DNA of 64,000 nt from the NCBI GenBank assembly GCA_032718475.1, contig JAUCBJ010005609.1, forward strand, positions 1-64,000. The letters run 5' to 3'. The stretch is from Nemertoderma westbladi. Its lineage: Eukaryota > Animalia > Xenacoelomorpha. The notes under the pieces are model-generated. The model worked only from the letters and a program-made list of their open reading frames with translations. It did no database searches and had not been told where the DNA came from. The position numbers and the translations under genes are program-made. Shown here in pieces: positions 15,111-55,245 of this stretch (position 1 is the stretch's first letter; every line of letters starts with the position of its first letter).

Positions 15111-15639
15111 ATTAGGTCACATGTTCTTGAGATATGGAGTATTAATTTCAAAGCCAGGTGCCATTTTATTAGCCCCTGATTTTTAATATTGATAGTAACA
15201 ATGTGTTGGCAAGCTGTGTTTTTCGAGGTGTTTGTTAATACACATTTCTAGGAAGGGATCTAGGGGTCTCAACCTCGAATGATAAGTTTATTTTACCGAA
15301 AATAACTTATCTTTTACTTGGGTGGAATTCCTTGACTTCTGGAGCCAGTAGGTGGATTTACCATCACCCCATCCCACCTCCAAGGACATGCATAGAACAT
15401 AGTAAACCACAATTATGAATAAGAATGGTGCAAGTGCGTCTCCCTGGAGGACTCCCCATAACATTTGGAATGGATCTGTGCCACCATCGAGATAACTAGA
15501 GACGGCGTCAAGACGCCATTAAGCAAGTCGTAAGTCACATAAAATCCTACCGTAAAGAAGTACTCCTCCTTTCCCTCAATTGGTAAACAAATCTTTTATT
15601 ATGTAGCACACATGTGTATGGGGCGCCATTGCCGCCAAA

Positions 15640-16263
15640 AAGAAGTCAGAATATAGAAATTGAAGTCAGAAAACGGAAGCCAGAAAACGGAATTCAGAAA
15701 ATGTAACTCAGAAAAAAGAAATGGAAGTCAGAAAAAAAATTGAAGACAGAAAAAATAAATGGAAGTGAGAAAACGGAAGTAAGAAAATGGAACTCAGGAA
15801 ATGTAAGTCAGAAAAAAGAAATGGAAGCCAGAAAACGGAAGCGAGAAAACGAAAGTCAGAAAATGGAACTCAGGAAAAAAATAAATGGAAGTCAGAAAAA
15901 AGAAATGGAAGTCAGAAAAGGAAATTGAAGCCAGAAAAAAGAAATTGAAGTCAGAAAAAAGAAATGGAAGTAAGAAAATGGAACTCAGAAAATGGAAGTC
16001 AGAAAAAAGAAATGGATGTCAGAAGAAAGAAATGGAAGCCAGAAAAATAAAATTGAAGTCAGAAAAAAGAAATGGAAGTGAGAAAACGGAAGTAAGAATT
16101 TGGAACTCAGAAAATGGAACTCAGAAAACGGAAGTCGGAAAATGGAAGTTAGAAGATGGAAGTCGGAAAATGGAAGTTAGAAGATGGAAGACAGAAAATG
16201 GAAATCAGAAAACGGAAGTCAGAAAATGGAACTCAGAAAACGGAAGTCAGAAATTGGAAGTCA
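15640..16263 (+). repeat. Array of ~14-bp AAATGGAAGTCAGA units (left subterminal repeats of a DNA transposon)
   Basis: Tandem degenerate units; the same unit occurs inverted at 18221-18408. Confidence 0.85.
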
Positions 16264-17119
16264 GGCTTTCAGTCAGTAGCTTATTATCACATTCAGCATT
16301 TCAATCCCAGGCTGCCTGCCAGGTGATGTTCAGTCAGGCTTATGTTTAGGAACCGAGCTAGGCCTTGGCAAGCGCCTCTATCTCTAGGCCTATGGATCTA
16401 CTTCTTTATGTTCACATTTCAGTATTTCTATTTTACAGTACTGCAGTACCGGTACCGGTACCGGTACCAGTACGTACTCCTACTCCAGTACAGCAGTAGT
16501 TCCTGTACATTACAGCTGTTTCATACCAGCACTCAGACTGATTGGTATATCTTTACCAAACCTATGTCACCTGCTGACCTCTACTGCTGTAGTACTGGTC
16601 TGTGGGTAGTGCTGTAAGTGTAAGTGTGGTAAAGGACCCCACTAATCCCAGCATAATCATAACACAATTAATTTCAGGAATTAACGACGAACTATATATA
16701 TCGTACCTTTAGGCCTTCGGGGCTTGGAATGTTTTGGGGTTGGGTTTAAAAATCCAATAGCGCGGGTATTTAATTATCCCATAGTGCGGACCAAATACCA
16801 GGATTATGATATTACTACCGATAGTTGGTCCGCTCCTATAGGCTTCCATTACAAATTTTACATTGAAAAGCATTAGGCCGGACCAAATACCAGTAGTACT
16901 GTATATATATAGGCAATCACTTATTTCTAAATCATTTAGCAACAGTGTTGTGTTTGTTCTGGGGGTGCATTGTCCAAAGTTATTGTCCTCATGCAGTGGG
17001 TTTATCTGACTGAGAGCGTTTGATATTACATCTGAAATCAATAGGGGCAACAACAATAATGCCACTGTTGATAACGCCAGTGTCTCTGTCTGCACATATT
17101 TTAATCGGCATAGTGTGCG

Positions 17120-18060: not shown

Positions 18061-18220
18061 ATTTAGGATTAACAATTTAGTAGAGGTTTACCCCAAGGTA
18101 TTGCATGCCTATATAAAATATTTATGATCACTTTTAAATTTAACCCTATTTTTCTATACCTCTTACTATTTTGGGCGTTGCCAGAGCATTGCTCAGCTGG
18201 ATATAGATGGGATATATTGC

Positions 18221-18408
18221 ATTTCTGACTTCCATATTCTGACTTCCATTTTCTGACTTCCATTTTCTGACTTCCACTTTCTGACTTCCATTTTCTAACT
18301 CCATTTTCAGACTTATGTTTTCTGACTTCCACTTTCTGACTTCCATTTTCTGAGTTCCACTTTTTGGCTCCCATTTTCTGACTTCCATTTATTTTTACTG
18401 ACTTCCAA
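18221..18408 (-). repeat. Inverted array of TCTGACTTCCATTT units (right subterminal repeats of the same transposon)
   Basis: Reverse complement of the 15640-16263 unit; the two arrays flank the transposase remnant. Confidence 0.85.
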
Positions 18409-18692
18409 TTTCTATTTAATATTTTTATTTATTAGCACACATATGGTTCGTATTTGGCAGAAAGATTCAGCGCCTCAAATAATATTTTAGAGAATGACTG
18501 CAACGCATCAATTTATTATCTTCTGCGAATCCAATGGTCTATGAATGCCAATACTTAATGTGTGGGGTGAGCCACGAAGTGAGCAAAGTCTTAGCATAGT
18601 GGTTCCAATATCGAGCTGTCCGTAGCCATCATCATCTAAGATTTGATCCCTATTATCTCGGTCAATCGTTGAAGAAATTAAACCATACTTGG

Positions 18693-19229
18693 TGTTAGCT
18701 TATTCAATCCCGCTAACACCCCATAAAGTTATAAGCCGATAAGCAATATTGGGAGCCACGAGATTGGGTAATTAACCAACTCGTGCCATCCCAATGAGAA
18801 TGGGAAGGAGAAGCACACAATGAGGGTCAGGGGCCAAACCCCTAACCCAGAGAGAATAGGTGGAGTGAACGGGAACACTCCAAAGGGCGCCAACAAGGGT
18901 ATCAACCAATCAGAGGGGGGAAAGGCATCGATTAGGTAGAGCAACAAGGCCAACCGTGCAATATAGCCACTTGGCAGTAATAATACCAATTCAGTTATCT
19001 CAGTGCAATACCGGTGCTAGATTAGGTTACATAGTTTTAGATAGGGAAGGACCGGGACTTTAGTTACCGTATCCCGCCTTCCGTATACGACAATATATCT
19101 ATATCTATATCTATACCTGCATATCATATTATATACGACAAACAGCACGAACTCATTTACTCTTTATACACGGCGGGGACGCGTGAACTAAAACCGGATA
19201 AACCGGGATCCCTCTTGGATCCCGTCACA
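18693..19229 (+). repeat. 5' LTR (537 bp)
   Basis: TGTTAGCTT...CCCGTCACA; no differences from 32376-32912 seen by eye. Contains CCAAT (~18906), a TATA-like AATATAG (~18960) and an Inr-like TCAGTT (~18991). Confidence 0.98.
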
Positions 19230-19298
19230 GTAACTAAATCAGCTGCCGCCCTAGATAAACTCTGTAACCATCAGCGACCAATCTAGAGATAAGGAAAG

Positions 19299-21728
19299 AT
19301 GAGTCAGTCGGGAGAAATAACACCGACGCGGACCCCGGACGAAGAACAAACGATCCGCGAGGCCGCGACCAGGCGGTATAGGCCCACGACGCCGGAGCCA
19401 TCAATAACGGGCGACCCGGAAGTTCAAGACGAGGGAGACCGTCTGGAGTCAGAAGCCGAGTCGAGAGGAGGGGGAGTCGAGTCGGAAGATAGAGAGAGCG
19501 GGCTCGAGGGAGAAGGAGACGAGTCGACACGGGACGAGGGTCGACGCACCGATGTCGCCGGCCAGCCACAGGCCGAGAGCGACGAACGGCCCACCGAGAC
19601 GACGACGGAAGGGCCGACGGTACGAGGAAGGACCCGGAGAGACGACGGAAGTGCCGATACCGATGTCGCCGGCCAGCCACAGGCCGAGGGCGACGGACGG
19701 CCCGCCGAAACGGCGACGGTGGGGCCGCCGGTACGACGTCGAACCCGGAGAGACGGACGAAGGGTCGGCGACGAGGACGTCGGGGTTTCTGAGCGACTTC
19801 GACGGGCCTACAACGCGACCCGGAGACTACTAGAGGAGGCCAGAAAGGGGAAAACGATAGACGAGGTAAAACTGAAGTCAGGACTAGGTAAGTCGGACAG
19901 ACATTTATACTATCTAATGCGTTTCGGGCAGAGAGAATTGGCCGAGGAGAGAGCGAGAAAGGTTGCCGAGGAACTGTATGACTCATGGCGGCATGGGGGT
20001 ATACAACCTAATGTAGTGTACATAGGGCCATATTTAATCGATGCCCGGGGTATAAAATTAATGGGTTGGAACAGACCTGAAGGGGGCGAATCCGAGGTTA
20101 ACCCCGAGGATTCGGCCTCGTCGGTCGGAGGGAGTTCCGGGAGGAGGGGGAAAGCTAGTAGATCGGGAAGGCGGAGGGAGTCCGTCGTAACCGATAAGTC
20201 TGCTACATCCTCCGCGAAAGAAAGACGGGTGAGAGAGGCAAGTGCCGCGTACCGTCTCGAGCTGATAGAGCAAGGTCAGAGGGAAATGGATAAACGGCTA
20301 GAGGAGGGGAGAATGCGGCTAGAGAGGGAAGCGGCATTGATTAGAGAAACCGGAGAGAGGGCCGAAAGGGCTTTGAGGGGCCTTAGGGAGTGTGAGGAAA
20401 AGGAGGAAAAGGAGTGTAGGGAACGTGAGGCGAGAGAGGAAAGGGAACGCAAAGAGCGTGAGGCAAGGGAAGAAAGGGAACGCAAAGAGCGTGAGGCGGA
20501 ACGCAAGGAGTATGAGGCGAGAAAGGAAAGTGAACGTAAGGAGCGTGAAGCGAGGCGAAGGGAGAGTGCTAGGAAAGTAGTAGAGTTGGCTGAGCGGGAC
20601 ACGCGGGAGTGTGAGAGGAGAATGACAGGAGCCGAGCGAGACCAGGAGGAATTAAAGAGACGCCAAAGTGAGCTTGGGGAACATAGGGTTAGACGCGCGC
20701 ACGAGCTGCAACTGGTGCGGGCGGGGGCGTCTGAGAGCGAGACAGGCTCGAGTATTTTAGAGGAGCCAGGGGCCGTGGATACATTTATTAATACCCCACT
20801 TACAGGGACCGCACGACAGACCCAAAACTGGTGTGACCGTACGGGCGGGGGGGGTAATAATGATAATGGTACAGTAGATGTGGTTAATATTAATAGTACC
20901 GTATGGGATAATTCTAATCAAACCTTTATTGCAGGAAATACTTTGCCTAGTGGTAGTAATTTAAATTTAAATCAGAACAATCTTAATATTAATGTAGAAA
21001 ATAATCCTAATATTAATGTAGCTAAGCAAAATAATCCAAATAACCAAAATAATAATAATTCAAATAATTTAATTAATGAGCCAAGCCCGAATTTACAAGA
21101 TAATTCAAATGATTTTATTTCGAACGAACGGGTTGATTCCGTTCCCAATACGGGTGCTATTAATGTAAACACGTCGGGCGTGTATGACCAGACAGATGGG
21201 GCCCAGGTAGGCCGCGTAGTTGGTAGGCAGGGAGTGGCTGGGTTAGGTAGACCCGGCGAGGGCCTGGTAGGCCACATAGTTGGTAGGCAGGGAGTGGCTG
21301 GGTTGGATGGACCCAGCGAGGGCCTGGTAGGCCACGTAGTTGGTAGGCAGGGAGTGGCTGGGTTGGATGGACCCAGCGAGGGCCTGGTAGGCCGCATAGT
21401 CGGTAGGCAGGGAGCAGAGGGCCTGGTAGGCCACGCAATAGCAGAGGGAGAGGCGGGGGTGAATAGACCCGACCGCGGTAGGGTTGATGTGTCGACTAGA
21501 GAGGGATATAGTAGCGGGATGAGAGATAGCGAAGTTAGATGTGGCGAGTGGGGGGGGGGGGGGGGGGGGGCTACGGGAGCCCCACAACAGCGAGTTAGCG
21601 GCGAACGGGAGGGGGCAGAGAGTGTCCCACAGCCGTCAGCGGATAATGCGAGGGCCGAAATAGGTAAACCGCAACAACCGGCGACGGAAAGTAATAGGGG
21701 GATTGCGAGTATCCCCAGCGGCGTGTGA
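19299..21728 (+). CDS. gag: N-terminal part of an extended Gag (charged coiled-coil, Asn-rich block, internal repeats)
   Basis: 809-aa ORF starting 69 nt after the 5' LTR. It ends at TGA 21726-21728, but the same frame stays open to 22538. Confidence 0.75.
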   Translation: MSQSGEITPTRTPDEEQTIREAATRRYRPTTPEPSITGDPEVQDEGDRLESEAESRGGGVESEDRESGLEGEGDESTRDEGRRTDVAGQPQAESDERPTETTTEGPTVRGRTRRDDGSADTDVAGQPQAEGDGRPAETATVGPPVRRRTRRDGRRVGDEDVGVSERLRRAYNATRRLLEEARKGKTIDEVKLKSGLGKSDRHLYYLMRFGQRELAEERARKVAEELYDSWRHGGIQPNVVYIGPYLIDARGIKLMGWNRPEGGESEVNPEDSASSVGGSSGRRGKASRSGRRRESVVTDKSATSSAKERRVREASAAYRLELIEQGQREMDKRLEEGRMRLEREAALIRETGERAERALRGLRECEEKEEKECREREAREERERKEREAREERERKEREAERKEYEARKESERKEREARRRESARKVVELAERDTRECERRMTGAERDQEELKRRQSELGEHRVRRAHELQLVRAGASESETGSSILEEPGAVDTFINTPLTGTARQTQNWCDRTGGGGNNDNGTVDVVNINSTVWDNSNQTFIAGNTLPSGSNLNLNQNNLNINVENNPNINVAKQNNPNNQNNNNSNNLINEPSPNLQDNSNDFISNERVDSVPNTGAINVNTSGVYDQTDGAQVGRVVGRQGVAGLGRPGEGLVGHIVGRQGVAGLDGPSEGLVGHVVGRQGVAGLDGPSEGLVGRIVGRQGAEGLVGHAIAEGEAGVNRPDRGRVDVSTREGYSSGMRDSEVRCGEWGGGGGGATGAPQQRVSGEREGAESVPQPSADNARAEIGKPQQPATESNRGIASIPSGV

Positions 21729-22492
21729 CCGAGCAGAGAGAGACAGGTTGACGTCGTAAGAGGGCGGACGAAGCGTCGAGCCCGATCAGAAGAGGGAAGA
21801 AGAACAGTGGGGTTTAACCGGGAGGTCGACGAGAGATCTCACGGGCGGGAATACTCCACTGAAAGGAGAAGAAGAGAAGACAGTAGTAGAAGTATCGCCG
21901 CGAACGATAGAAGAGCGAGGACGGATAGCGAGCCGTCGGTAGTCGAGATGAGAACAGAGAGTCAGTGGGGTCGGACTCCGGGAGATTGCCGTCGCCCCGG
22001 AGAGATGCGACCCGGCGAGGCGCACTACGCGCCGAGAGAGGGGTACGCGATGTACCGGTACGAAGACGAGAACAGTAGAGAGGGGGGTCGAAGAGAAACT
22101 TTCCGACGGAATACACCTATCGATCGAGAATACGGTAGCCGCGGGGAGGATTATTCGAGAAGAATAAACTTCGATCCCGAACAACACATGCAGACTGTAG
22201 GACATACTGTAGGCCTTACTGCACATACTGTAGGCCATACTGAGAGAGGCAATGTAGGCGATAGGATAGCGTGGACAACGGGATTAAACCCGGAAGTCGC
22301 GGAATACATACCGGCGGGTAGGCCAGAAGCTGATAGGCCTATACCGGTACCAGCACAGCAGTATGACTACAGCATGCAGGGACATAACATATACCCAGGG
22401 GAGGGGGGAATTATTGCGGATAGGTGCATGGGCCCCAACATATTAACATCAACCCCAGTACCAAACATACTGGTGGGGGGGGGGGGGGGGGG
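21729..22492 (+). CDS. gag: In-frame continuation of Gag after the TGA, up to the poly-G run
   Basis: Same frame as 19299 and stop-free from 21729 (PSRERQVDVVRG...) through ORF 21807-22538. It overlaps the Gag-core frame at the G run near 22475-22492. Confidence 0.6.
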
Positions 22493-23890
22493 CAGGGTGA
22501 CATTCCCCCATCACAATATCAACAATATACCCCGATAGGAGCGAGAACAACGAGACCCTTGGATGAGAATAGGTCGTGTGACACAGAAATATGGAGGGGG
22601 CCGCTACCCCCGATGACATACCCAAGTCAGAGAAAGTCAAGAAATAGGACAGACGGAACGCACCAGACAGGAGAAACTATACAGCACCCATCGAATCCAT
22701 TGGAAGCACAGGCGATGGGGATGGCCACGTTGATCGATGCGTTGAAAACGAGGATCGAGTTACCACCCGTGGAACCATTCAAATTCGATGGGAGTAGGCC
22801 GGAAGAATATCTACAGTTTCGGCGCATGTATAGTAACGAAATACTAACAAAAAACTTGACGCAGGCGGAGTGCCTAAAGTATCTACAAGTGTACACGGGA
22901 GGCCCAGCATACGACATCGTGAGGCAATATCAAGGGATAGAGGGCGGCTTCACGACAGCATGGCGGGCACTGGATAGGGAATACGGGCACCCGGCCAAGA
23001 TCATCAGGCAGACACTGAGAGGCATAACATCGGGTGGCCTACAGGATAATCCCGTTAGCATTAAGACGTTCGCTAACAAAGTCGAAAAGGCGCTGATCGT
23101 GCTGAAGACGCTAGACGCGCCATACGAGCTCAATGCGTCCAACAACATCACCACGATAGCGCAGGCACTACCAAACTGGCTGCGCAACAAGTGGAGAAAA
23201 ATCGCCTTCTCCACTCGAGATAAGAAGGGTGCGGAACCGGGTTTAGAAGAAATGTCAAACTTCTTAAACTACGAGGCTGAACTAATAACTGACCCAGTCT
23301 ATAGCGAAGATAGCCTGGGAAAGGGACCAAAGACAGACTACCATAGACCGAAACCAGAGCATAACACATCAAACGCATTACCGAGACTCAGGCAATCATT
23401 GCCATATGCAGCGACGCAGGGGACTGCAAGTCCACAGCTAGCCGAGGATAAGACAACACCATGGAGCGGACAGGGAAACAATAACAACACGAATAAACAT
23501 AACCCCAGTACGTCCAGTAGGCTAAATCCAAACAATAAGAATAGTAGGGACTTTGGTACAAACGCAACTGAGATACGCAATGCACTGTATAAAGAGGGCT
23601 ACGACCCAAAGAGCAAATGCCAGCTACACGCAAATGCGCTTCATCAAACCATGAACTGCAGGTACTGGCAGGCGCTACCTAGGCAGGATCAGATAGATTA
23701 TGCGTTCAGCAATAAAATCTGCTCGCGATGTGTAATGAGTGGACATAGAGCAAGGGAGTGCAAGGAGAAGCCGATAAAATTTGGTCAAAGGAGAGGCCAA
23801 ACGATGGCGACGAGCACAGTAGGAGCGAAGAAGAGAGGAACGGTGCTACTTGGAGTAGTACCCGTGCGAGTGATTGGGGAAGGCAATTGA
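22424..23890 (+). CDS. gag: BEL Gag core (DUF1759-like capsid region) with two Zn knuckles and the start of the protease
   Basis: LPPVEPFKFDG..EEYLQF...LKYLQVYTGGPA..IV...AW.AL.REYG; knuckles CQLHANALHQTMNC and CSRCVMSGHRAREC; VLLGVVPVRV. Confidence 0.9.
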   Translation: MHGPQHININPSTKHTGGGGGGGQGDIPPSQYQQYTPIGARTTRPLDENRSCDTEIWRGPLPPMTYPSQRKSRNRTDGTHQTGETIQHPSNPLEAQAMGMATLIDALKTRIELPPVEPFKFDGSRPEEYLQFRRMYSNEILTKNLTQAECLKYLQVYTGGPAYDIVRQYQGIEGGFTTAWRALDREYGHPAKIIRQTLRGITSGGLQDNPVSIKTFANKVEKALIVLKTLDAPYELNASNNITTIAQALPNWLRNKWRKIAFSTRDKKGAEPGLEEMSNFLNYEAELITDPVYSEDSLGKGPKTDYHRPKPEHNTSNALPRLRQSLPYAATQGTASPQLAEDKTTPWSGQGNNNNTNKHNPSTSSRLNPNNKNSRDFGTNATEIRNALYKEGYDPKSKCQLHANALHQTMNCRYWQALPRQDQIDYAFSNKICSRCVMSGHRARECKEKPIKFGQRRGQTMATSTVGAKKRGTVLLGVVPVRVIGEGN

Positions 23891-26800
23891 TCAGTAACAA
23901 CGCTAATGCTGGTTGATAGTGGAGCTGCCTTCACATTAGTCGAGGAATGGGTGGCCGAGGAGATAGGATTGAGAACGAGGCCAAGCAGGATGGCGGTAAC
24001 AACCATCTCTAGCAAAGATGAGATCCTGGAGATGAGAACAGGACGGTGCGCAATTGCAGCAATGGCACCAGGATGCGACTATGGGGCAACCATCGACCCC
24101 ATCCAAGTGATAGAGTCAATTAATATTAATGCCAGGCGACCAACCAACATCGAGGTCGAGCAGTATAAATTCCTGGACGACATTGACTTCTCAATCCCAG
24201 ACGTGGACGTTAGGAAGGTGTCCATCATAGTAGGCATGGACTGCCCAACGGCCCACGAAAGAATGCAAACGGTCTTCGGCGAAGACAAGCAGAGTGACCC
24301 GGTGGCCATATTAACACCATTCGGGTGGACGCTGAGTGGTCCAATTAAGAGCAAGATACCATTTAGGATGTCGGAGACATCAGGATGCATGTTCGCGGGA
24401 ACAATGCAGGAAATGGGTGACGAGGGAGCAGAGGAGCAGCTTAAAAGACTGCTCAGACAGGATTTCGAGGGACTGAAAGAAACCGGAGTCGGGACCTCAG
24501 TAGAAGACAAGCAGGCTTTACAAAGCGTGGAGGAATCAATGACATGCAATGAGGGACGGTATACTATAGGAATGGTATGGAAACTACCGAAGATACCGCT
24601 GCCCGACAATAGGGGGATGGTACTCACGAGACTCCGCAAACTGAAACAAACACTAAAACGGAGCCCCGAGAAGAATGAGTACATCCACAGAACAATTAAG
24701 AAGTACGTCGAGAAAGGATGGGCCGTGGAGTTACCGGTCGACGAGCCGAACACGGATAGAACATATTACCTGCCACTGCACGTGGCTTTAGATCCAAAGA
24801 AAGGTAAACTAAGGATGGTAGTCGACGCATCGGCAAAGACCGACGGAAAGTGCTTAAACGACTACCTGTTAGAAGGCCCAAACATATACAATTCGGGCAT
24901 AGAGGTGTTACTTAGATTTAGAAATGGGAAACACGCCTTCACGTGTGACATAGAAGGCATGTTCAACCAAGTCTGTGTAACGGAGGAAGATAGCGACAGT
25001 CAGCGCTTCTTATGGTATAACGGCGAGGAAGAACCGTCGATAATACCGGCATATAAGATGGTAGTACAGAACATGGGGGCCAAGTCGTCTTCATTTACGA
25101 CGACTATGGCAGTGAGAGACACAGTAAAGGGGAAGGAAGATAGATACAGCAGTAGGGCCGTCGATATGATTCGACGCGGCTTCTACGTAGACGACGGAAT
25201 GGAGTCTGGAAATACGGTTAAGGAGATACTGGATACAGGGCGCGAGGTTCGCGACATCCTAAAAGGATCCGGCTTTAACCTGACCAAATTCCAATCCAGT
25301 TCGGAAGAATTTATCAAAGCCATAGAGGACAGGAAACCAGAATCGACCATGGATAATCCCACAACAGCCAAAGGGCAGGACATGGCGATTAAGAGAACGG
25401 AGTCCCAGCAGAAGGCATTGGGAATCATGTGGGATAGAGAGACAGACGAACTGAAGTATCAGCTGAGCCAGGAGGGCGCAGACATCCACACGAAGAGGGG
25501 TTATGTATCGTATATAGCAAGGATATACGATCCCCTAGGCCTAGCATCCCCATTATTAGTCACGGGGCAACAGATACTCAAGAGAGTATACAAATTGAAA
25601 GATGAGTGGGACGTAGAGGTACCAGAGGAAATCAAGAAACAGTGGAGCAAGTGGACAGGAGACTTGGAGAAGATGGGAACATACAACATGCCACGGGTGT
25701 ATTTCCCGGATGGGAACATGACGAATCTGGACCTACACATGTTCTCCGACGCGTCGTTGGAAGCGTACGGAGCGGCACTCTACTTAGTACAACGAGAGGG
25801 GGCTCATAAGCCAAGACTAGCCTTTAGTAAAGCAAAGTCAACGCCACCAGATTCAGCATCAGTTCCCAAGTTAGAATTAACAGCTGCGAGACTAGGAGTA
25901 AGAGCCACAGCCTACCTAGTGGATACTATTCCCAACATAGTGGAGACACACTACTGGACGGACTCCATGGTAGTGCTTGGTTGGCTACATAACGAAAGGA
26001 CGAGATACCTGATATTCGTCGCGAATAGAGTGGACGAAATAAGGGCGAGCACAGAACTGGAAAGGTGGCACTACTGCCCAACAGACGAGAACCCAGCGGA
26101 CTTGCTGTCGAGGGGGGTGGAACGCCACACTTTCCTGAAGAAAGAATTATTGTGGCAACATGGGCCACAATTTCTGAGCGATAAGGAAGCCTGGCCGCCG
26201 ATGAGGAAGGTGGACCCGGGCTCGGAAGTAATATCAGAAGGAGAAGAGGGAGATTCAGAGGGAGAAGAGATATACTCCCAGATGGTGAGGGAGATTAGGG
26301 ACGTGCAACCAGGATGGGAACTGTGCGATAACCCGACGGATAAACTCCTCAGCTACAGTTCTAGTTGGTATAAGACCAAGAAACTAGTGGCGTACTGGAG
26401 AGCCTTCGGAAATTTCCTTGCGGGAGTTGGCAAGGACAAGAAGATCAGGACAACCATAGATCTGGAAGGAGCGGCCAAGGCAGTGATCCGCTATGAACAA
26501 CGGAAGAACTACGGCGACGAGGTGGAACGCGTCGGTAACCAACAGCACCTCCGACGGGACAGCGAGCTGATTACGCTGTCGCCACAACTCAATGACGACG
26601 GGATTCTAGTAATGAATTCTAGGGTGGGATATAACAACAGCATAGTCGTACCACCGAAACCCATCATCATTCCTACAGGATCGCCAATAGTCCACCAGAT
26701 TATATGGGACTCCCACAAATCGATATTACATGGGGGCACCAACCGAACCCTCACAGAGATAAGGAGGACCTATTGGGTCAAACAACTGAGGAAGAAGGTA

Positions 26801-27823
26801 AAAGCGGTAGTGGGGCAGTGCCAGACCTGCCGACGAGCGAAGAAGGAGCGAGCCGTACAGGAGATGGCGCCACTACCGGCAAGTAGGGTAAGACAGCACG
26901 ACCCGCCATTTACGCATTGCGGTGTGGACATGTTCGGGCCGATCAAGATCAAAGTGATGCGACACACGGAGAAACGCTATGGCATTATCTTCGTATGCAA
27001 CAATACGCGGGCGGTAGGGATAGAACTCGCCCAAGATGCAACCGCATCAGCGTTCATTAACGCCTTAGAAAGGTTTAGGGACCGCAAAGGTGGGACGATC
27101 GCAGTGATATACAGCGACAACAGCACCAACTTTGTGGGCGCAGAGAGTGAGATGGCAGAGGCCTTGGACATCTTGGAGGGAGAAGAAGTCAGGGCAGCCA
27201 TGAGACGACGACAAGTAAAGTGGGAGAGAAGGACGCCGTATGCACCACATACACTAGGATGCGTCGAGAGACTGGTGGGCAGTTCAAAGCGTCTAATGAC
27301 GAAGCTAATGAACACCCACATGGTCACTGAGGACGTCTTACGGACAGTACTTGCGAAGTGCGAGGGGATCATTAATAGCAGACCGCTATATCCGGAGAAT
27401 GATGACCCTGAGTCATTAGACGTGCTGACGCCTAGCCATTTCCTGATGGAAAGGCCAGCGACCATCGATATGCGGGGTGTAGACCCAGATGACATATACT
27501 CCCGCCAAAGTTGGAAAGTCGCAAAGGCAATAAGCGCAGAGTATTGGAGGAGGTGGGTCGAGGAATACCTACCCACGCTCCATAAGCGAAGCAAGTGGAG
27601 GAAGCCAAACAGGGAGTTAAGAGTAGGAGATCTCGTAATCGTTACGGATGATACTATCATCAACAACCAATGGCGGTTGGCGAGAGTTGTAGGCACCTAC
27701 TCCGACGAGGACGGAAGAGTCCGATCGGTAGAAGTGCGGATAGGTGGAAAGATAGGTGCGAAGGACAGGAAAACCTACAGGAGAGCAGTAGGCAAATGCT
27801 GTCTGCTAGAAGGGGCACCTTAA
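23891..27823 (+). CDS. pol: BEL Pol: aspartic protease, RT, RNase H, integrase, DUF5641-like C-terminus
   Basis: LVDSGA (PR); YLPLH..KLRMVVDAS..CLND.LLEGP, CDIEGMF, FYVDD (RT); LHMFSDAS..AYG, PKLEL, WTDS, NPADLLSRG (RH); H-x3-H..CxxC, VDMFGP, SDNSTNF, VERLV (IN); WRRWVEEYL..VGDLVIV..W.LARV. In frame with Gag across TGA 23888-23890. Confidence 0.97.
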   Translation, partial: SVTTLMLVDSGAAFTLVEEWVAEEIGLRTRPSRMAVTTISSKDEILEMRTGRCAIAAMAPGCDYGATIDPIQVIESININARRPTNIEVEQYKFLDDIDFSIPDVDVRKVSIIVGMDCPTAHERMQTVFGEDKQSDPVAILTPFGWTLSGPIKSKIPFRMSETSGCMFAGTMQEMGDEGAEEQLKRLLRQDFEGLKETGVGTSVEDKQALQSVEESMTCNEGRYTIGMVWKLPKIPLPDNRGMVLTRLRKLKQTLKRSPEKNEYIHRTIKKYVEKGWAVELPVDEPNTDRTYYLPLHVALDPKKGKLRMVVDASAKTDGKCLNDYLLEGPNIYNSGIEVLLRFRNGKHAFTCDIEGMFNQVCVTEEDSDSQRFLWYNGEEEPSIIPAYKMVVQNMGAKSSSFTTTMAVRDTVKGKEDRYSSRAVDMIRRGFYVDDGMESGNTVKEILDTGREVRDILKGSGFNLTKFQSSSEEFIKAIEDRKPESTMDNPTTAKGQDMAIKRTESQQKALGIMWDRETDELKYQLSQEGADIHTKRGYVSYIARIYDPLGLASPLLVTGQQILKRVYKLKDEWDVEVPEEIKKQWSKWTGDLEKMGTYNMPRVYFPDGNMTNLDLHMFSDASLEAYGAALYLVQREGAHKPRLAFSKAKSTPPDSASVPKLELTAARLGVRATAYLVDTIPNIVETHYWTDSMVVLGWLHNERTRYLIFVANRVDEIRASTELERWHYCPTDENPADLLSRGVERHTFLKKELLWQHGPQFLSDKEAWPPMRKVDPGSEVISEGEEGDSEGEEIYSQMVREIRDVQPGWELCDNPTDKLLSYSSSWYKTKKLVAYWRAFGNFLAGVGKDKKIRTTIDLEGAAKAVIRYEQRKNYGDEVERVGNQQHLRRDSELITLSPQLNDDGILVMNSRVGYNNSIVVPPKPIIIPTGSPIVHQIIWDSHKSILHGGTNRTLTEIRRTYWVKQLRKKVKAVVGQCQTCRRAKKERAVQEMAPLPASRVRQHDPPFTHCGVDMFGPIKIKVMRHTEKRYGIIFVCNNTRAVGIELAQDATASAFINALERFRDRKGGTIAVIYSDNSTNFVGAESEMAEALDILEGEEVRAAMRRRQVKWERRTPYAPHTLGCVERLVGSSKRLMTKLMNTHMVTEDVLRTVLAKCEGIINSRPLYPENDDPESLDVLTPSHFLMERPATIDMRGVDPDDIYSRQSWKVAKAISAEYWRRWVEEYLPTLHKRSKWRKPNRELRVGDLVIVTDDTIINNQWRLARVVGTYSDEDGRVRSVEVRIGGKIGAKDRKTYRRAVGKCCLLEGAP

Positions 27824-27959
27824 CTTGGAGTTAGAGTTGAGTTTAGTCGTCCAAGTTTTGGACTGAGGGGGGTGGGATTGAGGGCGAGACGCCCTTCCCA
27901 CAAACAAAATAGAAAAAATAAAATAAAATAAATAATAGTACATGCTAGGTACGCAGTTA

Positions 27960-28610
27960 GTAGGCAGAAGTTAGTTAAGAGGTACGTAGTACCTGGTCAG
28001 TTAGTTAGTTAGAAGGTACGTAGTACCTAGTCAGTTAGTTAGTTAGAAGGTACGTAGTACCTAGTTAGTTAGTTAGTTAGAAGGTACGTAGTACCTAGTT
28101 AGTTAGAGAGTTAGAGGGTACGTAGTACCGATAATTAGTCAGAGAGTTAGAGGGTACGTAGTACCGATAGTTAGTTAGAGAGTTAGAGGGTACGTAGTAC
28201 CGATAATTAGTCAGAGAGTTAGAGGGTACGTAGTACCGATAGTTAGTTAGAGAGTTAGAGGGTATGTAGTACCGATAGTTAGTTAGAGAGTTAGAGGGTA
28301 CGTAGTACCGATAGTTAGTTAGAGAGTTAGAGGGTACGTAGTACCGATAGTTAGTTAGAGAGTTAGAGGGTACGTAGTACCGATAGTTAGTTAGAGAGTT
28401 AGAGGGTACGTAGTACTGATAGTTAGTTAGAGAGTTAGAGGGTACGTAGTACCGATAGTTAGTCAGAGAGTTAGAGGGTACGTAGTACCGATAGTTAGTT
28501 AGAGAGTTAGAGGGTACGTAGTACCGATAGTTAGTTGGAGAGTTAGAGGGTATGTAAGTACCGTTAGTTAGAAGAGTTAGAGTTAGAGGGTACGTAGTAC
28601 CGTTTGTTAG
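27960..28610 (+). repeat. Internal tandem array, ~18 units of ~36 bp (AGTTAGTTAGAGAGTTAGAGGGTACGTAGTACCGAT)
   Basis: Direct repetition between pol and ORF3; each unit contains the hairpin GGTAC-GTA-GTACC. Confidence 0.93.
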
Positions 28611-29107
28611 AAGAGAGAGAGTAAGAGGTAAAAGGAGATATAGATATAGATATTAGTTAGCAGTTAGTAGCGTTAGTAGCGAGAGGGGGGCATATGAGTA
28701 CAGCTGGGTAAGTCGTGTGGCCACACGACGCATACTGCTGTACTGCATAGACCCACAGAGTAGGCCAGAATGTGGATTAGAGAATAGAATAATCCATAGG
28801 CAGTAGTAAGTAGTAGGACAGTAGAATCAAATTAAAATAGATAAATAAATAGAATAGGGCTGAAAGTTGTAAAATAGTGGCAACACAAGGGAAGTTATTC
28901 TAGAACATAATAAAAGTAACGGACAGAAATTGTAAATTACGCTCATTTACTAGCTTCAAAATTAATTAGGAATAATTTAGGTTAAAAGGCGCAGTTAAGT
29001 AGGAAATAGGCCATTACCGAACCGTACAGAACATCTTAGATACATCACTCATCTGTATTGCGCCTTGGTAAGGCACCACCTTGCAGGTGAGCGAGTGAAC
29101 GTTCGGA

Positions 29108-31657
29108 ATGGCGAGTAAGTTAATCAGAAAGAGAAAAGCGGAGTCAGGAGGAAAGGAGATACTGGTGGATTTCACCGAGAGGCATCCGGAAGAGAAGACG
29201 AGAGGATACTACGAGAGGTTGGAAAGGGGTCACGCGGCGCGAGCGCTGCAGGATCACTTCAGGGAGATGCACGAACAGCGGCTGGTCGGGACCTACGGGA
29301 TGCCGTCGCTGGACAACGCGATCTTCCAACACTTCCACTACGTGGTGAAAGGGGACGAGGCGAAGTTCGGGATTCCGAAGTACCCGAGGGAATCACCGAG
29401 GAAGGACTGGAAGAGATTCATAGAGTCCGTCAACAGAGGAGGATATATGATCCTGGATGATGAGGGAACCGTGGAAGACGAGGCGGGTTCGAGACGAGGA
29501 ACAGCGGGGTCAGCCAGGACCATACTCCTACATTTGGCCGCGCCAAATGGGGACATCTTCTTATTCGACCTAGGGACGTATGGGAAGAAGGACGGGCCAA
29601 AATTAGACCGGTTACCGAAAGCGGTACAAGTCTTAGTGAGAGAGAAGTCGACGACGAAAGTGGGATCGGCGATTCGCGAGGACGCGGAGAGGATCATCGG
29701 TCCGGACGCCACCAACCTCCTGGATATGCAGAAAGTCTTTATGGCTATGACGGCACCGGATGGGTTGGGGGTAGTCGAAAACACAGGCCAATGCGGGGCG
29801 GTGGCGATGGGCCAATTATTGGGGCTCGTATGCCACAAACCGATGGACTGGGGGAAGTTTAGGGAAGAATACGGAGCAGAACTAGCGAACTCGCTAAAGT
29901 GGGGAGCGAGACCGGGAAAGCAGGAGGTATATCAGTTCCGCAGGGGAGCGATAAAGGTATATCAGAAGCGATATATCCTGCAGGAGGACTGGATGATGAT
30001 AAGTTTGCTTAACTTATTCATGACCGTGATTATCGAGAGGGAACCAGGGGCATTTCTGTTATCGGGATCACCCCTAAGCTACAGGAGAGCCTTTAAAGTG
30101 GCCTTTGACGGTCTGGTAGACCACCCGGGGCTGAAGGGCGAGTCGGTGTACTACAACAGCCGACATCTGGTAGACGGGGAGACAGATACACCGTATCAGA
30201 GATGGGAGCAGCTAGAGACGGATAGACGAGAAGCAAAGCGACTGGAAGAAGTCGCTAGACGGGAGAGGATAGAAGCAGAGGAGAGGGAAGAGGAGGCCAG
30301 GACACAGAGTTACGGCTTCGAGGAACAGGCAGGCCTGGACGAGCTTCATTGGACTTCATCAGGGAGTTCGGGGGAGTCTCTAGGGCGAGAATTGGGATGG
30401 ACGGTGGGATCGCCGAAACAGTCGACGTCGGGGTTGCAAACGATGCCCATACCAGCGGGCGCCGAGGGCGACCAACCGCCAAGGAAGTTAAGGGAGCTAG
30501 AGGGATGGAGAGCTACGGGCGGGAGCCAAGGCGGGAAGGGACGTAGTGGATCCATCGGGATACCGGGATTGGAGACACTACCAGAAGAGGAGGACGACGA
30601 CGGCGAGTTCGGAGAGATGCCGCCCATCGAGAGGATAGGCCACTCGGACACAGACTGGGTTGGCGGAAGGGTGGTGACGGCCAGTGGGGCGAGGGCCTTC
30701 TGGAACAGATCCGGCAAGCGGACCTGGGTGCACGAGGAGCCGGCGATGGATTTCGCGGGGAGCACCATCAGGTTGGGCGAACAACCGGGGACTGCACCAC
30801 GGGTAGTATTCGGGGAGACGATGCCCGAGAGGGGTGGAGAGATCGACGTAGATAGAGAGACCAACGTAGAGAAGTTCGCCTACCAGCGACTCCACAGACC
30901 GCGGAGATCACTTGGGACGAAAGACGAGGTGGGACGGGAGACATTGGTACTCGGCTGCGACTACTGTGGGAGACAGACCCATCGGGAAAGCAGCTGCCTA
31001 TACCGGTTCCAAAAGGGAACCTTTTGTCTCTACTGCAGAGAACCAAGCCACAGGATGGGGGCGTGTCCACGGTTGCATAACCAATGTCCAAAGTGCCACT
31101 TTCGGGGACACTACGGACGCGAGTGCGACTGGATGAACGACGAGGAGAAGTTCACAAGATTCGAGGAGTGGGCCGACGTCGGGGCCATGACGCGCCAGCG
31201 CATGAAGGCCCAGGAGTTCAAGTGGGGTTTCTTCCTTATCAATCAGGAGACTCACATGGAAATCATAAAGCGGAGGCTACCGTTTACCTACCAAGAGGTA
31301 GCAACGGCGGGGTCGTACGCCGGAGTGATGAACACGCAAAGGTATTTGGACAGGTGGACGCCAGAGAACCGAAGGGAGTTTAGGGATTTCTTGGCGGAGC
31401 ACGTACCAAAGGCAATGAAAATGATCCTATGGGACGCCACCAGAGGGAGACAACTGGGCCACTCTGAGGGGCCACCGGCGAAGCGATATCGGGCACTAAT
31501 AACACCAGCGCCCAAGGAGCCAACGACCGGGATCAGCAGGGAGGTGGCGGCGAAGGTCCGAAAGCAGAAAGCGGATGATGCCAGAGGAACGGTGATAACC
31601 AAGAAACGGCCCAGGGAAGAGGACGCCAGGGGGAACTATCCCCAGAGGAACAGATAG
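29108..31657 (+). CDS. Accessory ORF3 of the BEL element: DEDDy (RNase D/WRN-exo/EXD-like) 3'-5' exonuclease, coiled-coil, and three CCHC zinc knuckles
   Basis: Intact 849-aa ORF. ExoI ILDDEG (D117/E119), LLHLA..GDIFLFDL, LP.AVQ.LV.E..T.KVG..IRED (ExoII D192), NLLDMQ, QKRYILQED (ExoIII Y289, E293/D294). Knuckles CDYCGRQTHRESSC, CLYCREPSHRMGAC and CPKCHFRGHYGREC. Confidence 0.85.
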   Translation: MASKLIRKRKAESGGKEILVDFTERHPEEKTRGYYERLERGHAARALQDHFREMHEQRLVGTYGMPSLDNAIFQHFHYVVKGDEAKFGIPKYPRESPRKDWKRFIESVNRGGYMILDDEGTVEDEAGSRRGTAGSARTILLHLAAPNGDIFLFDLGTYGKKDGPKLDRLPKAVQVLVREKSTTKVGSAIREDAERIIGPDATNLLDMQKVFMAMTAPDGLGVVENTGQCGAVAMGQLLGLVCHKPMDWGKFREEYGAELANSLKWGARPGKQEVYQFRRGAIKVYQKRYILQEDWMMISLLNLFMTVIIEREPGAFLLSGSPLSYRRAFKVAFDGLVDHPGLKGESVYYNSRHLVDGETDTPYQRWEQLETDRREAKRLEEVARRERIEAEEREEEARTQSYGFEEQAGLDELHWTSSGSSGESLGRELGWTVGSPKQSTSGLQTMPIPAGAEGDQPPRKLRELEGWRATGGSQGGKGRSGSIGIPGLETLPEEEDDDGEFGEMPPIERIGHSDTDWVGGRVVTASGARAFWNRSGKRTWVHEEPAMDFAGSTIRLGEQPGTAPRVVFGETMPERGGEIDVDRETNVEKFAYQRLHRPRRSLGTKDEVGRETLVLGCDYCGRQTHRESSCLYRFQKGTFCLYCREPSHRMGACPRLHNQCPKCHFRGHYGRECDWMNDEEKFTRFEEWADVGAMTRQRMKAQEFKWGFFLINQETHMEIIKRRLPFTYQEVATAGSYAGVMNTQRYLDRWTPENRREFRDFLAEHVPKAMKMILWDATRGRQLGHSEGPPAKRYRALITPAPKEPTTGISREVAAKVRKQKADDARGTVITKKRPREEDARGNYPQRNR

Positions 31658-32366
31658 GTTCCCAGAGTCGAGGGATAGAGACTGAGACTGGGACGTGGTG
31701 CGCCTGGAAGGCGCTGCGTGGGACGTACGAACTATTAAGTACAAATTTAATTAATGCAAATAATCATATAAGTGCAATTTGTATGTAAGTATGTAGTAAT
31801 TAGTAATCTACGAATATATACGCTGGGAGTAAGTACTATAGTCATACAACCTTTCTCAATTAGCTACTGGGACTGGGGGATAACTGACTATGGCACTATG
31901 GACGAGACACCAGACAATTTCACACTTCTTGAGTGCGACGGCACAAGAGGGGGGGGGGGGGGGAGATTCGTCAGAAGGGATGAGGTAGTCAGAATAGGGT
32001 TGAGGGACAGAGTAGTAGGTGCGAAGTGCGAAGAGAGTGCGGACGCAATTCTAGTGTGGGGGGGGGGAGAATAAGAGACTGAGTAAGGGATGAGGAGGTC
32101 CGAGTGTATGAGAGAGTTAGGATGAGAGTGAAGAAGAGATAGGGCGGAAGTGTTGGGGAAACAAAAGTTGCGTGAGAGGTGAGCGCGATCGGCCCGACAT
32201 GAGACGCCAGGCACACGGGGTAGCGTTATCATACCCATCGGGGGCGGCCTGGAAAGCCGGCTCCGAGAGAAAAGAATTCCACCCCACACCCGATACTAGA
32301 TCGGGATCCAGCGGGATTGTAGCGCACTTTTTGGTTGATGCTATCTTCTTACCGGGAAGATAGCAT

Positions 32367-32375
32367 GGGGGGGAG
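32367..32375 (+). other. Polypurine tract (GGGGGGGAG), preceded by an 11-bp hairpin at 32338-32366
   Basis: Abuts the TG of the 3' LTR; upstream sequence is ATGCTATCTTC-TTACCGG-GAAGATAGCAT. Confidence 0.85.
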
Positions 32376-32912
32376 TGTTAGCTTATTCAATCCCGCTAAC
32401 ACCCCATAAAGTTATAAGCCGATAAGCAATATTGGGAGCCACGAGATTGGGTAATTAACCAACTCGTGCCATCCCAATGAGAATGGGAAGGAGAAGCACA
32501 CAATGAGGGTCAGGGGCCAAACCCCTAACCCAGAGAGAATAGGTGGAGTGAACGGGAACACTCCAAAGGGCGCCAACAAGGGTATCAACCAATCAGAGGG
32601 GGGAAAGGCATCGATTAGGTAGAGCAACAAGGCCAACCGTGCAATATAGCCACTTGGCAGTAATAATACCAATTCAGTTATCTCAGTGCAATACCGGTGC
32701 TAGATTAGGTTACATAGTTTTAGATAGGGAAGGACCGGGACTTTAGTTACCGTATCCCGCCTTCCGTATACGACAATATATCTATATCTATATCTATACC
32801 TGCATATCATATTATATACGACAAACAGCACGAACTCATTTACTCTTTATACACGGCGGGGACGCGTGAACTAAAACCGGATAAACCGGGATCCCTCTTG
32901 GATCCCGTCACA
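32376..32912 (+). repeat. 3' LTR (537 bp)
   Basis: Matches 18693-19229 and is followed by the TSD CTTGG. Confidence 0.98.
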
Positions 32913-33417
32913 CTTGGTACGTAGTCATTTAATAGTTTAATAATTTTACAAATTAAATTTCGCTGGCCTTCGCACACTACATTGGTTAGTTGATAAGAGT
33001 TGGATAAGAACTTTACAAACAAGCATATACAATACAAGGCTAAAATCATGAGGAAATTATTGTTCCACCATTCAAAGGATAAGGAGTCAAGTGGAAACTT
33101 TTTGTTCTGTCCAATAAATTAGTCTGAGTGTAGCCTGGTGTATGTGGAATATTATACACAGCTTCAAACTATGACCATTCTGTTGTAATGATCTGATGAA
33201 TTATAATAGCTGTTGTGATGACAGCTGATAGAGAGCTGTTAGCGAAATGATTATTTTGTTCTGTGAGAAAGAGTAGTCGGAGAGGAGTCGAGGTATCAAT
33301 AGATTAATAATAACAGCTGTTGTCATGAATTCAATTCAATCGCACCAAAGAAGAAATATGATGAATCATTCTTATATTTGTAAATAAAATGTTTAGTTAT
33401 TGAGATGTTGGGATGTT

Positions 33418-33604
33418 AAACCGCGATTTAAACAAATCCCTTTAGAAATCTATTTTATGCATTTTTTATTTAAGGCGCATTCAAAATTTTACCCAAATCG
33501 TTAGAGCCGTTTTTGCTCTGGCTCAGTAGTCAGCAGTCCGTAGTCAGCAGTAATCAGCAGCCTTTTTTCTCACAGTAACCGAGTCTACGACGTGCTAATA
33601 ACTA
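33418..33604. mobile_element. Short dispersed repeat, copy 1 (possibly a non-autonomous Helitron/Helentron-type element)
   Basis: AAACCGCGATTT...GAGCCGTTTT...AGTCAGCAG microsatellite...CAGTAACCGAGTCTACGACGTGCTAATAACT; a diverged copy lies at ~35842-36006. Confidence 0.5.
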
Positions 33605-33683
33605 TACAAATCATTCGGCTTCTCCTCTATCAACAATAACCTACAGTAATAGGATATTCGCTTTATTTGATTCTAGCTGTTGT

Positions 33684-34961
33684 ATGTTTCTTATGGCTTT
33701 ATCAGTATCAATGCAGGAAACTATAAATGTAATAGGCAACACAACGTTTGAGAGTACGGGCGGTGTAGGACAGGGTAAGCCTTCCAGCTGTCCACTATTT
33801 TGTACACACATAGACCCTACGATTACAAAAATGGATCGTTTAGGAAAGGACAGTTGGCTAGGTTCTCTTCATGGAACATTATTAATGGATGACACATGTG
33901 TATTGGCTACCTCCCGAGCAAAGTTAACTGATAAACTTAACATCCTTAAAGATGTATGCGATGAAATTGGAATGACTTTACATCCTAAAAAGTCGAAATT
34001 TCTGACCTCATCCACTCTCGATAGCGACAGAATCCCCATCTTGATAGGGAACATCACAATCTCAATTGTATCCTCATATGTCTATTTGGGATCTTTAATA
34101 TCAATTCACCCTGTAGCGGTTCAAATTGATGACGAAATTAAGATGCGTATTGGTAACTGCCACAAATTCACTTCATTCCTCGGCAAAAACTGTGACGCTC
34201 CCTTTACCGTGAAGAAGTCAGTATGGCAGGCTGCTCTCCAATCTTCGCTATTATACGGATGCGAAACATGGTTATGTAATAACATCAAACCAATTGTTTC
34301 AGTGTTTTACAGAACGCTTAAACAACTACTCTCAGTTCGATTAACAACACCAAATGATCTCGTCCTTATTGAAACTGGCACTGAACATGTCAAGAGTATT
34401 ATTAAGAATCGGCAGTTAAAGTTCCTGAGGTCATTGTCCTCACGGCCTGGATATAAAGACAGTTATCATAACTACATTATGAACGAAGCTACATCAGTAA
34501 ACTCACCAATGGGAAAATACGCCAAAGAGCTGTTAGATACGGGTCATGTCATGTCGGAACTCCAAGCTGCAAAAGATCGAACTCTTACAGCCATAACGAC
34601 AAGGTGTGTGAATTATGTGGCATACAACCCAACTCAGAAACCCCACGAATTATACTCTGATCCTAATGTACCCGAGTGGGAGAGAATCTCATTTTCAAGG
34701 ATCAGATTGAGTTCCCATCGGCTACCAATGGAGATACTCCGATGGTCTCGGATTCCGAGAGAGAATCGTAAATGCTTATGTGGTTCTACCCAATCAGATC
34801 ATCACATATTCTTTGTCTGCCCACTAACCGAAAGTATTCGCTTGGATTTCGACTTTCCACCACCATCGTCATCCCTATCCAGAGTATTTGATAACCTCGG
34901 AACCCGATCCGCATCAATTTGCCATAAAATTATTAAAGTATTAGAGCCCGCACAAGTATAA
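33684..34961 (+). mobile_element. 5'-truncated non-LTR retrotransposon ORF2 (RT C-half plus C-terminal Zn motif)
   Basis: GVGQGKPSSCPLF, LLMDDT (YADD equivalent), YVYLG, LLYGCETW, RIRLSSHRLP.E..RW.RIPRENRKCLCG...HHIFFVC; 425 aa without stops. Confidence 0.88.
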
Positions 34962-54482: not shown

Positions 54483-54537
54483 TAATATTAATGAATATGA
54501 TACAAACTATGAAAACATTGTATTGTATTCCATTGTA

Positions 54538-55245
54538 CAGTACAGGCCACCAGAAAAAGCAGATTTCATCCAATGTGATCACATGTGAACACATTTGTTC
54601 AAGTCATCTGATTGGCAGGTTATGGCAAGTTATCCTCTAGATCACACAGCAGGAGGCTAACTTGCTGGGACCGACAAAGGCTTTGTGTGTGGTGCGCCTG
54701 TATGTCTGATATCAGGTAGATGAGAGAGCCCCCAGGGCGTAACATTGCGGACATGGGCTGTATTGGTAGAGAGAGAACTACATACAAGTCCACATGGAGG
54801 TTCATGGAGTGTATGGGAGTGGATGGGTATATGTATGGAGGAGCCTAGACCATTGAATAATTAATTTAGTGCAGGGAGATGTCGCGCCATTAGTCTGACA
54901 CCGAGAGGGCACAGAGAAACACCAGAAGATGCCTTAACATCTCTAACTATAGGCCTGCCTACTAGACACTATTAACCGCACACTATAAAGGTAAACAATA
55001 TCCTTATCGCATTTCCAGCTGCAGTGAGTGACAGTTAGCGGCAAACTACAGAGAGTTTCCAGGTTACTAAGTGTTCCAAAAGTATTCAATTGTATCCTTT
55101 GGCGAAAAAATTTTGGTTGTTGCCAATTCAATTATGTTCAATTATGTTCAATTGTCCCGTTCAACAACATTGCATTACACTGGTACACATTTGATAAAAT
55201 GTGTTCACAATTGTACAAATCTGCGTTTTCTGGTGGCCTGTACTG
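54538..55245. mobile_element. Tc1/mariner-type MITE (708 bp), ~29-bp TIRs, TA TSD
   Basis: TA|CAGTACAGGCCACCAGAAAAAGCAGATTT ... AAATCTGCGTTTTCTGGTGGCCTGTACTG|TA. The empty site CATTGTATTTGCTT is present in duplication copy 2 at ~60030. Confidence 0.92.

Follow-up and report, generated by a model that had tools for sequence, protein, structure and literature searches.

The BEL/Pao Element and Its Third Gene

The window, namely the whole 64,000-nt stretch of Nemertoderma westbladi DNA analyzed here, contains a 14,220 bp LTR retrotransposon at 18693-32912, and a further gene, ORF3, lies inside it. The features of the element are as follows.

18688..18692 (left copy) and 32913-32917 (right copy), + strand: target-site duplication, 5 bp, CTTGG
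18693..19229, + strand: 5′ LTR, 537 bp, TG..CA, 100% identical to the 3′ LTR
19230..19238, + strand: primer-site position, no TGG start, 9 nt complementary to LTR bases 19059-19067
19299..23890, + strand: gag region with a long low-complexity N-terminal part, DUF1759 and a weak CCHC, interrupted in this copy
23891..27823, + strand: pol, with protease, RT, RNase H (Peptidase_A17 region), integrase and DUF5641
27973..28602, + strand: 36-bp tandem array, 17.6 copies, between pol and ORF3
29108..31657, + strand: ORF3, 849 aa, with an exonuclease domain, a long helix, a disordered linker, three CCHC knuckles and a conserved C-terminal domain
32367..32375, + strand: polypurine tract, directly before the 3′ LTR
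32376..32912, + strand: 3′ LTR, 537 bp

Pfam models matched pol with Peptidase_A17 (E 1.5e-39) and DUF5641, and a gag piece with DUF1759. Judged by these three families and the pol order PR-RT-RH-IN, the element is a BEL/Pao retrotransposon, and the LTRs and target duplication agree with this originally predicted class. The 537-bp LTRs fall within the range of 0.2–1.2 kb given for the Belpaoviridae (PMC8742986). Among the matches listed, the RT region shared 32–38% identity with 120 pol relatives, all of which carried Peptidase_A17. Because the two LTRs are identical and flanked by a 5-bp duplication, the insertion must be very recent; an empty site, seen as a joint from 18686 to 32912, was present in contigs of runs X1 and X3, both from one sample.

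In this copy, gag is interrupted by two stop codons (21726-21728 and 23888-23890) and a frame change within 22424-22538. Both stops were absent from most other copies in the sequencing runs of the host, and relatives in other assemblies have a single open gag-pol frame of about 2,000–2,400 codons. ORF3 is open over all 849 aa, so the earlier observation of an intact ORF3 below broken upstream frames holds, with the interruptions located in gag. From run X1, 47,472 contig records mapped on the element, and 30 of 30 bins, those of ORF3 included, were covered in all four runs, a coverage that is only a sign of many copies and whose depth gives no copy number. The nine bases at the primer-site position may serve as a self-priming site or a splice donor.

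Domain Organization of ORF3

Between the pol stop (27823) and the ORF3 start lie 1,284 bases, and 718 bases separate the ORF3 end from the 3′ LTR. Four regions were delineated in ORF3.

29282..30130, + strand: DEDDy-fold 3′-5′ exonuclease domain (predicted), about aa 59-341, with D117, E119, D192, Y289 and E293
30191..30310, + strand: long charged helix (predicted), aa 362-401
30956..31126, + strand: three CX2CX4HX4C zinc knuckles, aa 617-673
31127..31402, + strand: conserved helical domain C-terminal to the knuckles, about aa 674-765, without a match to any known family

The residues D117, E119, D192, Y289, E293 and D294 and the three knuckles (CX2CX4HX4C at 617-630, 640-653 and 660-673) were located as claimed. 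For the ExoIII acid, which had been proposed as E293 or D294, E293 was found in register, whereas the D294 column is mostly A/V/S/T in 88 aligned domains. Likewise, a helix was predicted where a coiled coil had been claimed, but it is a single long helix. The NLS-like patches sit in termini with pLDDT <50. No TM segment was found in ORF3, with a highest 19-residue Kyte-Doolittle mean of 1.32, in agreement with the earlier exclusion of an Env protein; a hydropathy of 1.9 was exceeded by two of 44 long family ORFs. The domain at about 674-765, which the original prediction had overlooked, has conserved positions F685, G692, T695, R698 and G707 in the family alignments.

The N-Terminal Domain Is Predicted to Adopt a DEDDy Fold

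No Pfam family matched ORF3 alone at E up to 1, and therefore the DEDDy assignment rests on family profiles and fold. Pfam was nearly as silent on the relatives, with DNA_pol_A_exo1 near the cut-off in one of 36 relatives and in none of 44 exonuclease stretches, and word-indexed protein searches with the exonuclease region or alignment A2 returned no matches. The AlphaFold model of ORF3, built from 21 sequences, had a mean pLDDT of 61, with 80–90 over much of both domains. In structural comparison (VIA), Nibbler ranked first with Z 13.7, rmsd 3.3 and 202 aligned residues, followed by NrnC (13.2), Egalitarian (12.8), TbRND (12.6) and WRN (12.2), rows within 1 Z unit being counted as tied. The top Foldseek and VIA matches were DEDDy nucleases only, which is the outcome that the original prediction had expected of AlphaFold and Foldseek. 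In the Atlas, a score of 0.94 was reached with a cluster in which 34% of the members carry PF01612. In the predicted model, one strand carries D117 and E119, a helix carries D192, and the domain's long C-terminal helix carries Y289 and E293; these acidic residues thereby occupy the strand and helices expected of a DEDD core.

In the profile comparisons, the human EXD2 exonuclease came first among solved structures with three alignment profiles (E 2.4e-12, 1.5e-11 and 9.8e-14), ten orders of magnitude above WRN and TbRND (TbRND E 0.003), although the ExoIII stretch alone matched EXD2 below significance. Together, the Nibbler match and the family-profile match to EXD2 bear out the claimed fold, and the N-terminal domain of ORF3 is predicted to have the DEDDy (RNase H-like DnaQ) fold. 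The fourth acid is Glu (E293) in this copy, likewise in five other intact members, and a Glu in place of Asp may reduce activity in this copy.

The knuckle plus C-terminal module was modeled with confidence from 78 sequences (pLDDT 79, pTM 0.70). No structural match above Z 3.9 was found for it among 48,161 chains, Foldseek gave none at E 0.001, and Atlas matches stayed under 0.9; these missing matches do not show that the fold is novel. In profile comparison, the ORF3 knuckles resembled those of nucleocapsid and Lin28.

ORF3 Is a Family Trait of a Group of BEL/Pao Elements

A search of 1.84 billion protein representatives with ORF3 gave 69 matches, nearly all at the knuckle region, and all ten matches that were looked up were unnamed. 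The aligned relatives have an N-terminal exonuclease-like domain, three CCHC knuckles and the further conserved domain, and sequences of different lineages are only about 20% identical. Searching with a DNA motif that covers knuckles 2-3 then provided at least 120 loci from metagenome-type contigs (about 300 estimated), and the flanks of 80 of them were examined. Host sampling is narrow, as 97 of the 120 listed loci come from eight assemblies with neighboring accession prefixes, and since the loci were picked via ORF3, losses of ORF3 cannot show among them. One entry, P0039, was excluded as a repeat artefact.

The knuckle-module profile matched in 77 of the 80 flanked loci, which had been selected by knuckles, the exonuclease profile in 56, and both in one frame in 46; in three loci (L047, L059 and L061) the knuckle module was present and the exonuclease was not detected. 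Where at least 5 kb upstream was available, 30 of 32 listed loci had pol on the same strand and 28 had the exonuclease domain. The ORF3 start lay -444 to +1,697 bases from the pol end (41 listed loci with pol). Markers of BEL/Pao were found in all 32 pol ORFs scanned out of these 41, the nine shortest being left out: Peptidase_A17 in 26 and DUF5641 in the other six. Viral contigs gave no relatives by ORF3, pol or motif.

ORF3 Is Co-inherited With pol and Under Purifying Selection

Trees of the exonuclease and the integrase, inferred from 29 elements with both, shared 17 of 26 splits, and the two sets of distances were correlated with a Mantel rho of 0.86, a value that none of 2000 permutations reached. 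A tree of RT sequences that also included 32 other BEL pols put 23 ORF3 carriers on one side with a support of 98, while the pol of the window was placed at an open fork and a single clade was not rejected (p-AU 0.20); these RT trees were quick ones with no mixture model, and long branches were flagged.

Among the copies in the sequencing runs of the host, 34 of the best-supported 40 of 68 exonuclease-region variants were synonymous, compared with one third expected (p 2e-11), and these 40 left the catalytic residues untouched. Between elements, pairwise dN/dS was 0.09–0.19 in ten of 11 intact exonuclease pairs, one pair being saturated, and 0.04–0.29 in nine of nine dead pairs. In total, dN/dS was well under 1 in 22 of 22 exonuclease pairs and 37 of 37 knuckle-module pairs (pairs of >60% identity, which are not independent). 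The presence of a constrained ORF3 in other family members, on which the original prediction depended, was thus observed, and the claim that the gene is element-encoded and under selection is supported by the low dN/dS, the synonymous excess and the co-inheritance with pol. As far as these sequence comparisons reach, ORF3 is an old, inherited accessory gene in a group of BEL/Pao retrotransposons, and its product is almost certainly a selected accessory protein of DEDDy fold.

Such constraint bears directly on the idea that ORF3 is a recently captured host gene carried as a useless passenger. Its likeness to the host EXD2 in sequence would fit a capture; however, purifying selection within and between families and the tree congruence with integrase contradict it, and the gene lacks introns and is only about 20% identical from one lineage to another, so that this explanation is hardly credible.

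A Constrained Clade Has Lost the Catalytic Residues

The strict D-E-D/E-Y-D/E set was found in 42 of 88 aligned domains. When the 82 domains with ExoI covered were scored, some rows of which are near duplicates, 45 were intact (His allowed for Tyr), 24 lacked both ExoI residues and 13 were partial. Twelve dead domains formed one clade in both trees, with supports of 100 and 99. The catalytic states can be explained by two changes, whereas 500 shuffles required 9.7 on average; this difference is a sign of kinship and does not test co-evolution. Elements with a dead ORF3 nonetheless have long intact gag-pol frames.

A TGG(C/T)GCC primer site, which we take to be of the tRNA-Lys type, was present in 17 of 26 loci checked, namely those with a visible junction: seven with an intact, eight with a dead and two with an unscored ORF3. 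The possibility that the primer type tracks the catalytic state was rejected, as elements with intact and dead ORF3 have the same site. Since the dead clade is constrained and uses this same site, cutting is not essential in every lineage, and selection that persists despite the lost cutting residues makes gripping of RNA the likely job. RNA binding is thus quite probably the core function of ORF3, and dead and active lineages may have different jobs. The simplest reading of the analysis would be an RNA-binding protein with an optional nuclease.

Possible Functions of ORF3

The interpretation that we ranked first, tentatively and at somewhat below an even chance, is that ORF3 attaches to the 3′ ends of RNA and either shortens or retains small RNAs of the host, which would weaken silencing of the element, a role that the original prediction had also raised. 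It was placed first on account of the parts shared with TbRND, of the host DEDD proteins in small-RNA pathways, and of the gain to the element. The ORF3 message would be a sub-genomic RNA produced by splicing. The knuckles, together with the C-terminal domain, would hold on to single-stranded RNA and guide the 3′ end of that RNA into the exonuclease pocket, much as in TbRND, whose CCHC domain is required for binding of RNA and stimulates cleavage (PMC7797062). Where the catalytic residues are intact, as in this copy, the bound RNA would be cut shorter; the dead lineage would only retain it, in the manner of EXD1 and Maelstrom, two host pseudo-nucleases that PMC5408684 lists as inactive DEDD proteins of the piRNA pathway. 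The same paper places host DEDD proteins in small-RNA pathways. The target would be the host piRNA/siRNA pathway rather than a step of reverse transcription, although small-RNA silencing as the target is itself a tentative choice that we would not yet favor over all others combined. Against counter-silencing, copy number in rotifers was not found to be clearly linked to the presence of a DEDDy ORF3 (PMC5408684).

As a more specific and more doubtful scenario, an unnamed ancient BEL/Pao lineage may have acquired an EXD2-like nuclease, joined it to the triple knuckle and to a new domain, and put the fusion to use specifically against small RNAs; in one branch, the protein would then have become a pseudo-nuclease decoy like EXD1 or Maelstrom. 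EXD2 itself is, to our knowledge, not a small-RNA factor.

Part of the same evidence would fit a cis-acting RNP factor, that is, an ORF3 that binds the element's own RNA for export, localization, packaging or shielding, like the dead nuclease domain of Egalitarian that reads RNA localization signals. Egalitarian belongs to the tied group of fold matches (Z 12.8), the knuckles are like those of nucleocapsid and Lin28, catalysis is dispensable in a constrained subclade, and strict co-inheritance with pol is consistent with such a role. We rank it second but nevertheless consider it unlikely, as gag already has its own knuckle (a weak match), and the full catalytic set kept in 45 of 82 domains over deep divergence would be left unexplained. 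If ORF3 acted on mRNAs or tRNAs of the host, or on some other RNA-decay route there, instead of small-RNA silencing, this would suit a fold family whose members Rrp6, RNase D, NrnC and EXD2 have varied substrates, but with no positive evidence and an unclear benefit to the element, this is very improbable.

Help in reverse transcription or integration, by trimming of primer or cDNA 3′ ends or by proofreading, was put forward for the DEDDy domains of rotifer elements and of Dada in PMC5408684 and PMC3706591, respectively, and was among the roles suggested by the original prediction. This copy combines an intact motif with an unusual primer site without TGG start, and the tied fold matches include the exonucleases of WRN and of polymerases. 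As a core job, however, the role is weakened by the results above: the TGG(C/T)GCC site does not track catalysis among the 17 loci that show it, the dead clade is constrained, gag-pol frames are long and open in elements with a dead ORF3, and ORF3 is a separate frame outside pol. It is therefore improbable, if a little less so than a host-RNA target.

It is an open question how LTR retrotransposons manage to persist in the face of piRNA/siRNA silencing, and in animals few counter-measures encoded by the elements themselves are known. If counter-silencing is true, the element would encode its own suppressor of piRNA silencing, one that occurs naturally in both active and dead forms open to comparison. 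These forms, which stand on sister clades with the same primer type, amount to a natural experiment.

Comparison With Known Systems

Nematode Cer elements with extra ORFs have an env-like gene, and an RNase D-like domain has reportedly been noted in a Cer (BEL/Pao) element, which makes a BEL precedent for the nuclease alone possible. The ICTV profile of the Belpaoviridae gives third genes as env-like only (PMC8742986). The word exonuclease is absent from the main text of a BEL/Pao survey in 62 genomes, and the term was not found in the available parts of PMC3118150 and PMC6086898. In the literature covered, which included the accessible text of PMC11662393 and to which the nematode Cer and Repbase/GyDB literature did not belong, no description of this architecture or of a BEL clade carrying it was found. 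DEDDy ORF3s are known from rotifer LTR elements. The exonuclease plus triple-CCHC gene of this BEL/Pao group adds a third-gene class to the Belpaoviridae and a protein domain without a match in Pfam or PDB.

ORF3 shares some features with cellular nucleases. TbRND (PDB 7C42-7C4C), the best Foldseek match of the whole model (E 1.4e-5), also joins a DEDDy exonuclease to a C-terminal CCHC run, a combination called very unusual among solved structures in PMC7797062. TbRND works in mitochondria as an enzyme of the cell and has four knuckles and a linker of 28 residues (PMC7797062). In ORF3, the knuckles number three, the linker is about 270 residues long, an extra domain is present, and identity to TbRND is 15–18%. 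Assignment of ORF3 to the ZFD-containing RNase D of the TbRND type was rejected on the three knuckles, the long linker and the low identity, and the likeness, weak in sequence (E 0.003), is likely due to convergence. Human EXD2 (PDB 6K17) is the best family-profile match, in which ExoI and ExoII align and the first 125 residues are covered; by structure, it is not above Nibbler or others, so the EXD2 likeness is one of profile ranking. EXD2 has a membrane anchor, which ORF3 lacks.

Among mobile elements, Dada DNA transposons also encode a DEDDy exonuclease with intact residues, inserted within the DDE transposase (PMC3706591), whereas ORF3 is a separate gene. The closest parallels are the DEDDy (RNase D-like) ORF3s of the bdelloid rotifer LTR retrotransposons Juno1/2 and Vesta2/5, with related genes also in Terminons, as given in PMC5408684, PMC6431247 and PMC5718144; that such accessory ORFs exist in rotifer LTR elements, as the original prediction stated, is described in PMC5408684. 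Similar to the element in the window, Juno and Vesta in this account carry the DEDDy gene in the ORF3 slot downstream of pol, without a TM segment, and have an altered motif too, theirs being DEED. Different from it, PMC5408684 describes no triple-CCHC module and only a Cys-His-Cys motif in Vesta2/5, reports near-neutral intragenomic variation in the resequenced env-like and GDSL-like ORF3s, and argues for a recent gain of ORF3, as opposed to the long co-inheritance observed here. In that text, the rotifer DEDDy ORF3s were left as a curiosity without sign of benefit, while in the BEL/Pao group the gene is old, vertically inherited and constrained.

Sequence features around and within the element

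Outside the BEL/Pao element (18693-32912), the window carries the following repeats and remnants:

3145-8464, 11277-13495, 15637-16274 and 18194-18415: satellite arrays, with units of 20, 25 and 14-20 bp
33579-34961: RT fragment of a non-LTR retrotransposon
51093-61215: duplicated block, roughly 5.4 kb long, that contains remnants resembling RT

The 14-bp satellite arrays lie in opposite orientations immediately left of the insertion.

Two features were found inside the element between pol and ORF3, the 849-aa exonuclease and CCHC-knuckle frame:

27973-28602: 36-bp tandem array, each unit containing a small hairpin
29050-29087: tract rich in pyrimidines whose final CAG lies about 20 bases upstream of the ORF3 start

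The tandem array is also covered by other element copies in the host sequencing runs, among which its length differs. The pyrimidine-rich tract with its terminal CAG may serve as a splice acceptor for ORF3. In runs X1, X2 and X3, a minor variant lacks 31120-31680, a loss that takes away the last portion of knuckle 3 together with the entire C-terminal part of ORF3.

ORF3 relatives with an altered or undetected exonuclease

Three ORF3s from metagenome-type contigs (L047:3341-6529, L059:6880-9648, and L061:2-2425) carry the knuckles and C-terminal domain, while no exonuclease was detected in them; in the RT tree, L047 and L059 form a long branch of their own. In the aligned exonuclease domains, the ExoIII Tyr is replaced by His in the sub-lineages L010/L077/L079 and L008/L016/L032/L072, and in the second of these groups two acidic positions are additionally Asn. 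At another locus, L022, only a DUF5641 remnant is left upstream of ORF3 and the flanking repeats are about 5 kb apart; this locus is possibly a deleted element that has retained ORF3.

A candidate self-priming site

No TGG primer site is present directly 3′ of the 5′ LTR of the window element. Instead, the first 9 bases past the LTR (19230-19238) are the exact complement of the LTR-internal 19059-19067, the single place across the whole element where their complement occurs. Such complementarity arose in 39 of 20,000 shuffles, in a test devised after the match had been noticed. Folds containing this pairing lay 1.3-2.4 kcal/mol above the best fold, and its pairing probability was 0.02-0.13. 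Alternatively, the sequence at 19230-19238 could be a splice donor rather than a self-priming site. As a self-priming site, the two complementary segments would be a candidate for a Tf1-like one in a BEL element.
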